Assembly: GCA_951406725.2 (NCBI GenBank) | Contig: OX597822.1 | Span: forward strand, 30,814,001 to 30,878,000 | Length of the DNA stretch: 64,000 bases | Source: Octopus vulgaris | Lineage: Eukaryota | Reading direction: 5' to 3' | Shown here: positions 2,345 to 54,942 of the stretch, piece by piece | Numbering within the stretch: position 1 is the stretch's first letter | How the letters are laid out: every line of letters starts with the position of its first letter | The notes under the pieces: generated by a model | What the model was told of the DNA's origin: nothing | The model's database searches: none | The model's input: the letters and a program-made list of their open reading frames with translations, nothing else | Program-made: the position numbers and the translations under genes

Positions 2345-3127
2345 TTAAAAATAATAACGGGGAAAAACTGAATATTAATTTGATTAATATCAATCTAAAA
2401 CTAGTGGTCTAGCATATAGAAAAATCTGAAAATTCAGAAAAATTATATTACATTCATATAAGATGGATGACCACTAAGTGGACATCCATTATATTAGAAG
2501 TCGGCCTCCTATAGTTTTACCACTAAGAAAAGAATATTCTCAAGAAAGTATAGCAAACGCCAGAACGTAAGTGAGCAAGACAAATGAAAAGATACAAAAT
2601 ATACAGATTAATCACAAACCCGGTTTCGTTGTTACCACTTACGTAATTACTTACGTAGATGTCCTCAACTCGTCAGTGTGATCGTTATAGCAAAATATAA
2701 TTTGCAGTACCATACACGAGTCGTCCGCATGAGATTGAACATGTATATAGTTCTACCATTTACATTTGTGGTTATATTTCAAAAGTCTTCGTTTTGGCGC
2801 GCCAAAATACCGGAAATAATTCTGCAGAAAATAATTCTCTGCAGTGAATTTTGTCGGTTAGAGAACATAGTTATTTAAATTTCAATAAAGAATAATAAGG
2901 GTGAAAACTTGAATATTAATTTGATTAATATCAATTTAAAACCAGTGGTCTAGCATATAGAAAAATCTGAAGATTTAGAAAAAATATATTACATACATAT
3001 AAGATGGATGACCACTAAGTGGACATCCATTATGCTAGAAATCGACCCTCTATGGTCTTACCACTAAGAAAGGAATGTTCTCAAGAAAATATAGCAAACG
3101 CTAGAACGTAAACGAGCAAGACAAATG
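2345..3127 (-). mobile_element. Non-coding 541-bp unit in partial tandem (two ~240-bp direct repeats) carrying a hammerhead ribozyme; Penelope pseudo-LTR/retrozyme-like
   Basis: ~2345-2586 and ~2886-3127 are diverged direct repeats offset by 541 bp (GAATATTAATTTGATTAATATC at 2370 and 2911). A hammerhead lies in the spacer, an inverted partial copy at 3288-3416, and the unit abuts (TA)n. Confidence 0.75.
2611..2682 (-). ncRNA. Type I hammerhead ribozyme motif (HHR-1)
   Basis: Minus strand reads AUCACA-CUGACGA-GUUG[34 nt incl. UACGUAA/UUACGUA hairpin]CAAC-GAAA-CCGGG-UU-UGUGAU: 6-bp stem I, intact core, stem II, minimal stem III, GUU cleavage triplet. Confidence 0.85.
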
Positions 3128-3480
3128 TGGCGAGTTGGTTGGACCGATAACATTACGAATAAAATGCTTCATCCGCATTTGTTCCGGTTTAACATTCTGG
3201 TTTCAAATTTCGTAGGTTTGACTTTGTTATTCATCCTTTAGAGATCAATGAAATAAATACTATTTGAGCAGTGGGGTTAATATAATATATCTTTTCATTT
3301 GTCTTGCTCGCTTACGACCTGACGTTCGCTATATTTTCTTGAGACCGTTCCTTTCTTAGTGGAAAGGCCATAGGAAGTCGATTTCAGGCATAATAGATGT
3401 CCACTAAGTGGTCATCGCTCTTGTATGTATGTATGTATGTATGTATGTATGTATGTATGTATGTATGTATGTATGTATGT

Positions 3481-3856
3481 TTGTATGCTGACATGCAATG
3501 TCTGTGCAAGACCCCTCAGTAAATTTGAATTCAAGAGTCATCTTCGTAGTCATAAAACGAGACAGATGAGCGACAACCTGGCCACTGGTGGTGGTGTAAC
3601 ACACCATACTAATCATATCTGTCGGGAATGTAGAGAGAGTGTAATTCGGCAGGAGGTCTTAAACGACATGTAAAGGTACATGAAGCCCAGTTACAACTAC
3701 AGCCGGCTATTACCGGTAAAGGTTTTAGTTGCCAATTTTGTACAAGACATTGTAGATCTTTAGCTGGGCTAAAAAGTCACATTCGATCACAGTACCAGTA
3801 ACAGTTAAGCTTCGTGCAATGGCCGAACTCGATAACGAAGGGGCAGCCATAATGTT
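3481..3856 (+). mobile_element. 3' end of an RTE-like LINE with C-terminal C2H2 fingers (5'-truncated)
   Basis: TCNVCARPLSKFEFKSHLRSH, then HICREC...SAGGLKRHVKVH after a frameshift. Short UTR, flanked by (TATG)n on both sides. Confidence 0.6.
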
Positions 3857-3941
3857 TGTATGTATGTATATATATATATATGTATGTATCTCTCTCTCTC
3901 TCTCTCTCTCTCTATATATATATATATATATATATATATAT

Positions 3942-4212
3942 AGACCATCAGATGTTGCGACACATCGCTGGTCACAATGCGTTGGCATTGTTTTAGCCTT
4001 CGAATGACGCCACCCCGCTGGCTAAGCGAGCAGGCCAACAGAAGAAAGAGAGAAAGAGTGGTGAAAGAGTACAGCAGGGATCACCACCCCCTGCCGGAGC
4101 ATCGTGGAGATTTTCAGGTGTTTTCGCTCAATAAACACACACAACGCCCGGTCTGGGAATCGAAACCGCGATCCTACGACCGCGAGTCCGCTGCCCTAAC
4201 CACTGGGCCATT
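3942..4212 (-). mobile_element. tRNA-derived SINE family R, tail type 2
   Basis: Head AATGGCCCAGTGGTTAGGGCAGCGGACTCGCGG...GGTTTCGATTCCC (A and B boxes) is shared with the copies at 16410, 17721 and 18253; the 3' tail differs. Confidence 0.85.
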
Positions 4213-5234
4213 ATATATGCATATATAAGCATTTTCGAGGTCGAAAGCTGGTCGAAAGCTTTATGATTTGACAGTCTTGAGCGGCTCCTGACTGCTGTGA
4301 GCAATGAAACACAGTTTATATCGACCAATACATTTTCGGGGGTTCACAGCATGAAGCGTAATGCTCATTTGCTGTTTGTGTTCTTCATCTTTCCCCTGAA
4401 GTTTTGCTTATCAACAGTTGCTCATTCCTTTTTAAAAACCTATGCGTCTGTATGCGTCTGTTGGTGTCGGGGAAGTGTTGTGAGCTACTTCGATATTTAT
4501 GCAAAGATGCGCTTTTGTTTAAAAATAAACAAAGAGAAACAAATAACAAAAACCGAACGAATGAACAAACAAAAGTGCTTCTTTGTTTGATTCAATCAAA
4601 ACGTGTGATATATTTTGCGTCTGTATTTTTTCTTTTTTGCTTTATCCACGCACAACGACAGACATATTGTTTGTACGATTTATGCGATATCTTTAGTTTT
4701 GTTTACATCATGCGCAGTAACGGAAATGCAAACATCGATTAAACTGCATCTTTTCTTACCTTGATGTTTGCTCTTCCACATCCTCTCTATTTCTTTTCTG
4801 TTTCTTTTACTCTTCATCTTTCTATAACCCTTTCTCTGTGTCTCTATCTGTGGCTCTGTCTGTTTGTCTCTCTTTCTCTCTCTCCCTCTCTCCTAGCGTC
4901 CTTTAACCATTTTAATACATCTCAGTACCCCATGCGACCAATCTCATTCTCCCTATCTGCGTCTTCCTTCCATCTCTCACCAAGTTCTATAATGGTAGGT
5001 ACTTTCCTCATCTTCCCTTTTCGTTTTTATTATTTCATATTTTTGAGGTGGCAGGACCGATAATATGACGAACAAAATACTTCGTCCGCATTTGTTCCGG
5101 TTTAACATTCTGGATTCAAATTTTGTAGAGGTTGACTTTTTCATCCTTTAGAGATCAATGAAGTAAATACCATTTGAGCACTGGGATTAATATAATCATC
5201 TAGTTTCTTTCCCCAAATCTCAAGCCTTTACCTA

Positions 5235-52943: not shown

Positions 52944-52954
52944 TATATATATAT

Positions 52955-53327
52955 AGGCGCAGGAGTGGCTGTGTGGTAAGTAGCTTGTTTACCAACAAGT
53001 AGCTTGTTTACCAACCACATAGTTCCGGGCCGACCAAAGCCTTGTGAGTGGATTTGGTAGACGGAAACTGAAAGACGCCCGTCGTATATATATATATATG
53101 TATATATGTGTGTGCGTGTATGTTTGTGTTTGTCCCTCTAGCATTACTTGACAACCGATGCTGGTGTGTTTATGTTCCCGTCACTTAGCGGTTCGGCAAA
53201 AGAGACCGATAGAATAAGTACTGGGCCAAAGAATAAGTCCCGGGTCGAGTTGCTCGATTAAAGGCGGTGCTCCAGCATGGCCGCAGTCAAATGACTGAAA
53301 CAAGTAAAAGATGAAAGAGTAAAGAGT
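52955..53327 (+). mobile_element. SINE family K (with a 19-bp internal tandem duplication and a deletion)
   Basis: AAGTAGCTTGTTTACCAAC occurs twice near the 5' end; the rest matches the 47785 copy. Confidence 0.9.
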
Positions 53328-53796
53328 ATATATATATATATATATATATATATATATATATATATATATATATATATATATTATATTTTGTGAAATTTGA
53401 TTTAGTATTTCTAAATTGAATTTTTCCCTGTAAGTTAGGAATAATATTTCCTCAAATAATAATTATTTACATATATATATATATCAAGATAAATTAAACA
53501 TAGAGATATTCAATTGGCAACCCAATAATTATTATTACAATATTACGTTAAATACTATGAATATAATATCTAGCATAACATAATATTATATAACATGTGT
53601 AACTATAAAAACCATAGGTTTGTTACTATATATATATATTTTTTTTTCTTGTTCCAGCTCGGATCTGCGGCCATACTGATGCACCGTCAAAAAAATTCCA
53701 ACTTTGATTTTCACGTTTTATTTACAATCTTATAATAATATAATATAAGACAATATAATATAATGAAATGATAGAATATTAAATGTCCATTCTGAT

Positions 53797-53841
53797 TGAA
53801 CTAGTACTTTCATGCATTAAACTATGCAATCTTCAGGTTCA
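53797..53841 (-). ncRNA. Minimal type I hammerhead ribozyme motif (HHR-4)
   Basis: UGAAC-CUGAAGA-U-UGCAU-AGUUUA-AUGCA-U-GAAA-GUAC-UA-GUUCA: 5-bp stem I, 5-bp stem II, palindromic AGUACU stem III, CUA triplet. Confidence 0.88.
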
Positions 53842-53990
53842 TGTAGTAATGGTGACAGTTATGTTTTACAATTTATAACTGTAGTGAGATGACTAGGTTA
53901 AACTGTGTGCCTTAACGGCATTTGTATAGGCTCCAGAATGCTAAGTTTTGCAAACTGTATTCTGGACCAATCAGTTTGTTGTTTTACTGA

Positions 53991-54942
53991 ATTACTTTAG
54001 TTGATTGGTGTTTGGTTTAGGAGTCACAGTTAGTTCAACATGTCAAGTGACCAATATTTTGACGCTGGCCAAAACAGTAATTTTTGGGCTATTTTTAGAA
54101 ATGTTTTAAACAACATTTCCCATGGATTTTTACATTTCAATTATCATCATCACTATTATCATCTCCTTTATTATTGTTATCGACGTTGTTGTTGCTGTTC
54201 TTGTTCTTGTTGTTGACGAATCTAAGTAGGAGTAGCTGTGGTAATAGAACTTTAAACCCCAAAATAATATTATTTTAACAAACGTTTCTCTTGACTTAGC
54301 TCGTATTTTCCTTCTATCCTCATCATGAGCACCTTCAGTATTGTTGTTGATGTTAGTGGTAGCGGTCGTAGTGGCAGAAATAGTACCTCTATGTATTAAT
54401 ATTATTATTTAGCTCGGGTTGGATAACGATAATTCTATTAACACAGCTACGCCTATCACGACCACCACCTCTACCACCACCACCACCACCACCACCACCA
54501 CCACCAACAACAACAACAACAACAACAACAACAACAACAACAACAACAACAACAGCAATAATGGACATGATAATGTTGATGATGATAGTTGGAATGTAAA
54601 AATTCATGAGAAATATTTACAACATTTCTAAAAATAGCCCCCAAATTACTGATTTGGCCAAGGACATTATTTACATTATTTACATTTGATGGATATTTGT
54701 CCTCATCTTGTTTGTTGTTAACACAACTTTTCGGCTGATATGTCCTCCAGACTTCATCAGGTGTCTTGGGGAAATTTCGAACCTGGGTTCACATTCCTAA
54801 AGTATATTTCGATGTTATTATTTCGATGTTATTATTATATTAATGTACTTAATTCCTCATCTCTTAAATATAGAACTGTACAGCTCTTGACATGTTGAAC
54901 AAACAGTGACGCCTAAACCAAACACCAATCAATTTAAGTAAT
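53991..54942. mobile_element. Old foldback/MITE-like structure with ~170-bp inverted arms; right arm interrupted
   Basis: 53991-54162 is the diverged reverse complement of 54567-54660 plus ~54885-54942. Confidence 0.8.
54721..54764 (-). ncRNA. Minimal type I hammerhead motif (HHR-5), slightly degenerate
   Basis: ACAC-CUGAUGA-A-GUCUG-(10 nt)-CAGCC-GAAA-AG-UU-GUGU: stem I ACAC/GUGU, one mismatch in stem II. Confidence 0.75.

Follow-up and report, generated by a model that had tools for sequence, protein, structure and literature searches.

Minimal hammerhead motifs near the 3' ends of high-copy elements in a 64-kb stretch of the Octopus vulgaris genome

Many minimal hammerheads per invertebrate genome, located on the ends of PLEs, were reported in 2014 (Cervera and de la Pena, PMC4209133), and the function of these PLE hammerheads is called unclear in PMC8557442. 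The window analysed here, a 64,000-nt stretch of Octopus vulgaris DNA, contains five motifs, numbered M1 to M5 with the elements that carry them, which belong to this already known kind. Like the minimal hammerheads of metazoan PLEs described in PMC4209133, they combine a type I core with a short stem I and a palindromic stem III. The palindromic character of 15.2-16.2 is common to both sets, as is an extra (bulged) base between A9 and stem II, present in four of the five window motifs.

Motif authenticity and genomic abundance

A sequence-only reading of the window had proposed five cores of the type CUGANGA..GAAA..UN closed by a stem I, and all of them were verified at their given positions on the minus strand. 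The type I descriptor used for their evaluation (stem I of at least 4 bp, stem II of at least 3 bp, near-palindromic stem III) was built after the motifs were known, and was then run on 800 kb of independent DNA. In the comparison with dinucleotide shuffles that had been proposed as a check, four of the five motifs were matched, against 0.017 matches per shuffled window (five of 300 block-wise shuffles gave one match, and none gave two). The motif at 54721-54764 was missed because of a mismatch in stem II and another in the stem III palindrome. Among the 800 kb of independent random DNA, the descriptor returned 18 matches, against 0-1 in each of 20 shuffles. When the palindrome requirement was lifted in a search of 1 Mb, 79.5% of the inner stem III positions were paired among 23 real matches, versus 23.5% among the 10 matches from 25 shuffles. 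Core positions also differed less often from the family majority than positions elsewhere (8 of 767 versus 361 of 9216, non-CpG, p=5e-6), with significance reached in only two of the five families taken singly. All core-like heptamers of the window were listed, and inspection by eye revealed no additional type I motif. A U3-A8 descriptor found nothing in the window and its flanks and gave one weak match in the 800 kb. Microsatellites dominated the repeat search of the window.

The 18 descriptor matches of the 800-kb sample fell into ten families, in agreement with the earlier view that several hammerhead families coexist. Extrapolation yields about 63,000 intact motifs genome-wide (Poisson 95% range 37,000-100,000, from 18 in 800 kb), or about 200,000, on the same sample basis, if decayed copies are counted. 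The very large ribozyme complement suggested by the sequence-only reading therefore stands as a number of transposon ends, not as a demonstrated set of working ribozymes, and its density of one motif per ~13 kb holds only when decayed copies are counted (58 in 800 kb), intact motifs alone occurring about once per 44 kb. With four descriptor matches, the window is about 2.8 times as dense as the sample rate (P=0.058).

Elements carrying the motifs

Each motif is located near the 3' end of its own high-copy repeat, which runs 61-274 nt past the predicted cut in five different families; the templates therefore held an uncut motif. The absence of mutual similarity noticed earlier was borne out by BLAST, which gave none among the five elements. 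Stem III is short and palindromic in the window motifs, the palindrome being broken in the M5 window copy. The five motifs occupy three places, since those starting at 26475 and 26846 are 337 bp apart and that starting at 54721 is inside the inverted arm of the element with the motif at 53797.

M1 (2343-3127, minus strand) consists of a 541-nt unit (2343-2883) and, in front of it, a tandem repeat of part of the unit's tail (2884-3127), self-BLAST aligning 2343-2586 with 2884-3127 at 89%, and it ends at a (TA)n tract (2306-2335). Its minimal type I hammerhead (2611-2682, minus strand, predicted cut after 2617) has a stem I of 6 bp, a long stem II, a near-palindromic 7-nt stem III and U17. An inverted fragment of the tail, devoid of hammerhead, is found on the plus strand at 3280-3433. 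No ORF was found in M1, and tblastn with two PLE ORFs gave no match.

M2 (26357-26575, minus strand) is an element of about 220 bp with a nearly fixed 5' end, usually inserted within a TA-type microsatellite; no ORF was found, nor any same-strand tblastn match with the two PLE ORFs in M2 loci. Under the NUH rule, the base at the hammerhead cleavage site is not G. Position 17 of M1, M3, M4 and M5 conforms to this rule and that of the minimal M2 motif (26475-26509, minus strand) does not, confirming the G seen there earlier. G17 occupies this site in 14 of the 15 rows aligned; exact matches number 153, and 49 of the first 100 carry it as well. It travels with other diagnostic bases and is an inherited subfamily state.

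M3 (26745-27006, minus strand) is a solo terminal repeat (pLTR), inserted in (TA)n, of a young PLE with an ORF of ~840 aa. Its minimal hammerhead (26846-26888, minus strand, predicted cut after 26850) displays an 8-nt perfect palindrome in stem III and A17, and the window copy is 95-99% identical to other copies. Hammerheads flank the intact ~840-aa ORF on both sides, as direct repeats 6.3-8.0 kb apart, in five of eight stretches, and pLTRs also occur in inverted arms. The ORF was assigned to PLEs on the basis of a profile match to an RT+GIY-YIG ORF (probability 96.4), Pfam alone having given no domain; GIY-YIG was matched in only one of 25 aligned relatives, and searching PDB sequences with the M3 alignment yielded no match. 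Judging by its endonuclease motif, M3 may belong to the Nematis clade.

M4 (53687-54423, minus strand) is the 5'-truncated 3' end of a probably Neptune-type PLE and starts within the final codons of its endonuclease ORF. Its minimal hammerhead (53797-53841, minus strand, predicted cut after 53802) carries a 6-nt perfect palindrome in stem III and A17. Of 13 other M4 loci, 10 show remnants of a PLE ORF (GIY-YIG/RT) upstream in the same orientation, the upstream endonuclease matching GIY-YIG with an E-value of 1.4e-8, and the linker matches the CX2-5CxxC pattern given for Neptune in PMC8557442. A 5'-truncated inverted arm (54433-54942, plus strand), interrupted by M5, is 80% identical to the sense arm over 225 nt, M5 left out.

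M5 (54664-54880, minus strand) is a short element represented here by a headless copy, a tRNA-like head being present in longer copies of the family; about 40 nt of the family's 3' extension recur in inverted orientation at 54841-54880. Its hammerhead (54721-54764, minus strand) is decayed, with mismatches in stem II and in the palindrome, both of which are intact in most family copies. Again, no ORF was found, nor any same-strand tblastn match with the two PLE ORFs in M5 loci. The head lies upstream in 15 of 33 rows, three of which are the window's own headless copy, and the body follows 14 of the 18 complete heads. A and B boxes were recognised by eye, ARAGORN called a tRNA in none of seven loci, and the head had no tRNA match in Rfam at E<=5. 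In addition, a sixth hammerhead family is represented by an inverted pair of 3' ends (26113-26351, one on each strand), whose plus-strand arm keeps the ribozyme 3' half (26226-26286) and lacks the first core box.

Among the local copies, a few 5' ends fell near the predicted cut (M1 at 0, -2 and +4; M2 at +1; M5 at +2, +3 and +7). Genome-wide, about 13 of the first 100 of 1106 M5 matches to a 9-nt window at the cut were true starts, against about 33 of the first 50 of 177 for a control window, all classified by eye and only four checked in loci; the resulting excess at the cut, about twofold after filter correction, is confounded by an 8-bp palindrome at the site. The cut site bears a 3-nt deletion in 79 of the first 100 of the 1106 matches. 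In the 34 unselected copies, this deletion was present twice and a comparable one, 14 nt further downstream, once; it was not interpreted as a cleavage scar.

Origin, strand and possible role

These observations very probably mean that each of the five motifs is a minimal type I hammerhead at the 3' end of a different high-copy family, with no relation between the families: two are the ends of protein-coding PLEs (M3 and M4), and the other three are short elements that have no ORF and are likely replicated with Penelope enzymes. The solitary copies are likely inactive passengers. Family membership, the position near the 3' end and the ties of M3 and M4 to PLE ORFs are directly supported, as are the partial tandems, inverted arms and microsatellite targets typical of PLEs. 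The PLE dependence of M1, M2 and M5 is deduced from insertion footprints, because no ORF partner was found; a rare full-length parent may exist. All hammerhead copies of the window are solitary, hence their likely inactivity. Where a source element is in tandem, its transcript would hold two hammerhead copies, which would dimerise via the palindromic stem III and cleave in that form, releasing the element RNA from a longer transcript. The dimer step was approached here through self-duplex energies. Target-primed reverse transcription would mostly stop early, filling the genome with short 3' ends that carry a single uncut hammerhead each and face either way.

Chance matches in AT-rich repetitive DNA could be invoked on the grounds that folding energy carries no signal (MFE z from -1.89 to +0.17) and that no hammerhead appears among the 150 Rfam matches listed of 196 for the window; the excess over shuffles in both the window and the 800 kb, the stem III palindromy found even where the search did not demand it, and a layout common to ten families with different stems make this origin almost inconceivable. 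The Rfam matches listed were nearly all to miRNA families and driven by microsatellites. Selection of the shared strand with respect to a host transcript that spans the window, or use of the motifs as ribozymes by the host, would fit the minus-strand position of the whole motifs, noted earlier and found in all five, and the same strand is used by the window's LINE ORFs, mariner fragments and Gypsy-like fragment, and by a 7tm_2 ORF ~98 kb before the window. However, the flanks (200 kb) hold 10 plus-strand and 9 minus-strand motifs by homology, window and flanks pooled give 10 and 14 (p=0.54), and two family patterns are balanced genome-wide (38/34 and 75/78, plus/minus). Moreover, the five motifs amount to three clusters, in which inverted arms and half of a further hammerhead lie on the plus strand; of the motifs themselves, that of M5 is decayed and that of M2 carries G17. 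A domain search of the 64 window ORFs of at least 62 aa found no host domain or exon, a size limit that shorter exons would escape. A host role is thus very unlikely, the strand selection suggested by the sequence-only reading is not supported, and the common strand is likely due to chance.

M1 could alternatively be a non-LTR retrozyme monomer, spreading via self-cleavage and circular RNA, instead of a plain non-autonomous PLE. It has no ORF, its unit tail joins its own start directly in the window and in three of 12 pattern-selected loci, two hammerheads lie 530 bp apart in a related family (L110), and retrozymes have been proposed as PLE derivatives (bioRxiv 10.64898/2026.07.22.740005). On the other hand, none of the 12 loci held two hammerheads or a longer array, the 541-nt unit exceeds the 150-450 bp given for metazoan retrozymes in PMC7229834, and partial tandems are a normal PLE footprint as well, according to PMC8557442. 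We consider this alternative rather unlikely, the two readings of M1 being overlapping ones.

Under the preferred reading of PLE-associated 3' ends, we tentatively propose, with some doubt, that short Penelope-dependent parasites exist in this genome, including a tRNA-headed SINE borrowing PLE enzymes, and that at least one of them, the M2 G17 subfamily, has spread with a ribozyme predicted not to cut. If so, autonomous tandem elements alone would depend on cleavage, mobilisation in trans would not, and the role of PLE hammerheads would become testable family by family. Whether retrotransposition requires cleavage could be tested on a comparison set made up of young intact PLEs, whose cores are canonical or U3-A8, and of ORF-less families in which the core has G17 or is otherwise altered.

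Comparison with known elements

M3 and M4 come closest to the EN+ PLE clades Neptune and Nematis (PMC8557442, PMC3846280). In rotifer Penelope, the ORF is reported to contain Asn-rich inserts and a spacer to precede the 3' pLTR; the M3 spacer, of 3.5-5.2 kb with internal repeats, is longer than the 0.9-1.5 kb of the rotifer elements. Like the metazoan non-LTR retrozymes described in PMC7229834 and bioRxiv 10.64898/2026.07.22.740005, M1 has a head-to-tail unit that lacks an ORF and holds a single type I hammerhead, but its unit is longer, its tandems are partial only, and it is known here from DNA alone. M5 recalls the SINE-like elements Sm-alpha and Sj-alpha of Schistosoma (PMC6765202) in having a tRNA-like head, its boxes seen by eye, and a hammerhead, and departs from them in its minimal PLE-type motif, its PLE-type inverted arms and tail, and its dispersion.

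As in the genomes of PMC4209133, many families are present per genome, mostly as single truncated copies and with opposite-strand pairs, and the U3-A8 covariant reported there exists in this genome too. Our data add an estimate for this genome derived from a sample, which for intact motifs runs into the tens of thousands; the figure of ~63,000 stands against 2,000-9,000 per genome in PMC4209133, obtained with different descriptors. Unlike the minimal hammerheads described there, those of the window include a G17 subfamily (M2) and two motifs, M3 and M4, with an extra base on the 3' side of stem II.

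Hammerhead motifs and their repeat families

All five minimal hammerhead cores claimed by the sequence-only reading (M1 to M5: 2611-2682, 26475-26509, 26846-26888, 53797-53841 and 54721-54764, minus strand) were located in the window, which has a GC content of 35% and abundant microsatellites and belongs to a 2.8-Gb genome in 227 contigs. A type I descriptor (stem I of at least 4 bp, stem II of at least 3 bp, near-palindromic stem III) recovered four of them, versus a mean of 0.017 matches, and never two, in 300 shuffles of the window. The one missed was M5, whose window copy has a mismatch in stem II and a broken palindrome, the majority of copies in its family being intact. 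Because the descriptor was drawn up only after the motifs had been seen, it was rerun on an independent sample of 80 random 10-kb stretches (800 kb), where 18 matches were found versus 0-1 per shuffle (20 shuffles); the similar density in shuffled sequence that might have dismissed the motifs was thus not observed. With the palindrome condition removed, 79.5% of inner stem III positions were paired (23 matches in 1 Mb), versus 23.5% in the shuffled counterpart (10 matches). Neither folding energy nor the matches listed in an Rfam scan of the window supported hammerheads, which is unsurprising because a single copy of such a motif does not fold stably.

Each motif sits in its own dispersed repeat (each query drew 1452-3789 first-look candidates; among the 40 scored per family, best matches had 83-99% identity), and no similarity was found among the five families. 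M3 is a terminal repeat of 262 bp. Among eight stretches selected for open frames of 838-862 aa, its hammerhead flanks the ORF on both sides in five, in the same orientation and 6.3-8.0 kb apart, and on one side only in three. This Asn-rich ORF, with a 3' spacer of 3.5-5.2 kb, matched no Pfam domain and aligned over 592 columns (probability 96.4, E 1.1e-9) to a same-genome ORF with reverse transcriptase (RT) and GIY-YIG endonuclease, the domains of Penelope-like elements (PLEs). Rotifer Penelope offers smaller precedents for both the long spacer and the Asn-rich ORF (PMC3846280). M4 is an element end truncated at 5' and followed by an inverted arm, within which M5 is inserted; same-strand PLE endonuclease or RT remnants lie upstream of M4 in 10 of 13 other loci (Pfam GIY-YIG), and the associated linker matches the Neptune pattern. 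M1 is a partially tandem unit of 541 nt with an inverted tail fragment, and M2 measures about 220 bp with an almost fixed 5' end. For M1, M2 and M5, a PLE ORF on the same strand was looked for and not found.

Further elements were seen. A second young PLE family outside the window has 781-aa open frames with RT and GIY-YIG (L265:2244-4586, L193; also L266-L268) and a 3' UTR bearing a hammerhead with a U3-A8 covariant core; in L265 this hammerhead flanks the ORFs on either side, with a separate 359-aa open frame upstream. A repeat of about 550 bp in (TTA)n tracts (8852-9255, 11029-11587, 14563-15591, partially tandem, and 20612-21098) conserves the CUGANGA heptamer, yet lacks the type I layout. 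An imperfect palindrome (52644-52955; 310 bp, 82%) resembles a PLE inverted insertion.

Strand distribution

The shared minus strand had been attributed either to chance or to selection relative to a host transcript. Selection was not supported: the 200-kb flanks were balanced (2+/2- by descriptor, 10+/9- by homology), pooling them with the window gave 10/14 (p=0.54), and random-sample splits were 10/8 and 22/36 (p=0.087). Moreover, the five motifs form three clusters, with arms and a half hammerhead on the plus strand alongside. Among 252 non-repeat ORFs in 264 kb (at least 62 aa, a threshold that short exons would escape), Pfam recognized only mariner transposase fragments (window 5504-6275, minus) and one intron-less 7tm_2 ORF of 634 aa (L077:120-2021, minus, about 98 kb before the window). 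Against chance, the window's other coding transposon remnants are likewise on the minus strand, including non-LTR retrotransposon ORFs between (TTA)n tracts (11969-14056 and 7998-8699; 696 aa, RVT_1, E 4.6e-27), which we take to resemble the Dong/R4 type, and Gypsy-like protease/RT fragments (25009-25671), recognized by eye and without a Pfam match.

Cleavage site and proposed mechanism

Under the NUH rule, the base at the cleavage site (position 17) is not G. Of 153 exact M2 matches, the first 100 were nevertheless counted by eye, and 49 of these had G17; among M2 copies compared (9 G, 13 U) this base was linked with other diagnostic bases, and therefore a G17 source has spread. Departures from the core recur among M2 relatives at random loci (e.g. 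L100, L112, L120, L124, L140, L144, L168), with U at position 6 and any of the four bases at 7, or C at position 4, and apparently lie at the family level.

The motif is located 61-274 nt inside the 3' end in each family, hence integrated templates carried it uncut. None of the window copies is paired with a sense-oriented partner from its own family. Variation is lower at core positions than elsewhere (8/767 vs 361/9216, p=5e-6; significant in M2 and M4 only, family by family), which fits selection in source lineages. In published work, single minimal motifs failed to cleave and dimers did so weakly (PMC4209133), and hammerhead function in PLEs is described as unclear (PMC8557442). Tandem source elements may cleave as dimers and release element RNA, scattered single copies being presumably inert. 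G17 in M2 qualifies this model: either G17 is tolerated, or cleavage may be dispensable in trans. No paper settling its tolerance was found in the literature searched.

Abundance and relation to known systems

A tRNA-like head opens the longer M5 copies; it is present in 15 of 33 rows, and the M5 body follows 14 of the 18 complete heads. ARAGORN recognized it at 0 of 7 loci, and Rfam did not recognize it either. Inverted M5 insertions at L315, L317, L320 and L326 have a 3-nt cut-site deletion common to both arms, therefore already present in the template; at L303, L308 and L314 it affects one arm only. Another tRNA-like short repeat occurs in both orientations (window 4037-4212, 16402-16775, 17712-18448).

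Descriptor density in the sample (1 per 44 kb) extrapolates to about 63,000 motifs genome-wide, with a range of 37,000-100,000 that assumes Poisson and is widened by clustering. The stretches came from 26 contigs with bounds guessed from earlier matches, so distal regions are under-sampled. Homology, including decayed copies, gave 58 in 800 kb (1 per 14 kb), or about 200,000. The proposed density of one motif per 13 kb or so therefore holds with decayed copies and not by descriptor; by homology the window is typical (P=0.49), and by descriptor it is mildly enriched (P=0.058). The coexistence of several families was upheld, the 18 sample matches falling in 10 families and those of the window being mutually dissimilar.

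No published hammerhead count for octopus was found in the literature searched. Elsewhere, genomes are reported to hold 2,000-9,000 minimal motifs each (PMC4209133); for a coral the figure is more than 6,000 of type I, belonging to 16 families (PMC7229834), and for a squid genome 235 Rfam hammerhead_1 matches are recorded (PMC6962438). Penelope figures among expanded coleoid repeats (PMC8967140). The many-family minimal hammerheads described here are additional members of an already known kind. Their least described part is the tRNA-headed M5 family: no paper on a PLE-dependent SINE was found in the literature searched, and SINE-like elements carrying a hammerhead are already known from schistosomes (PMC6765202).
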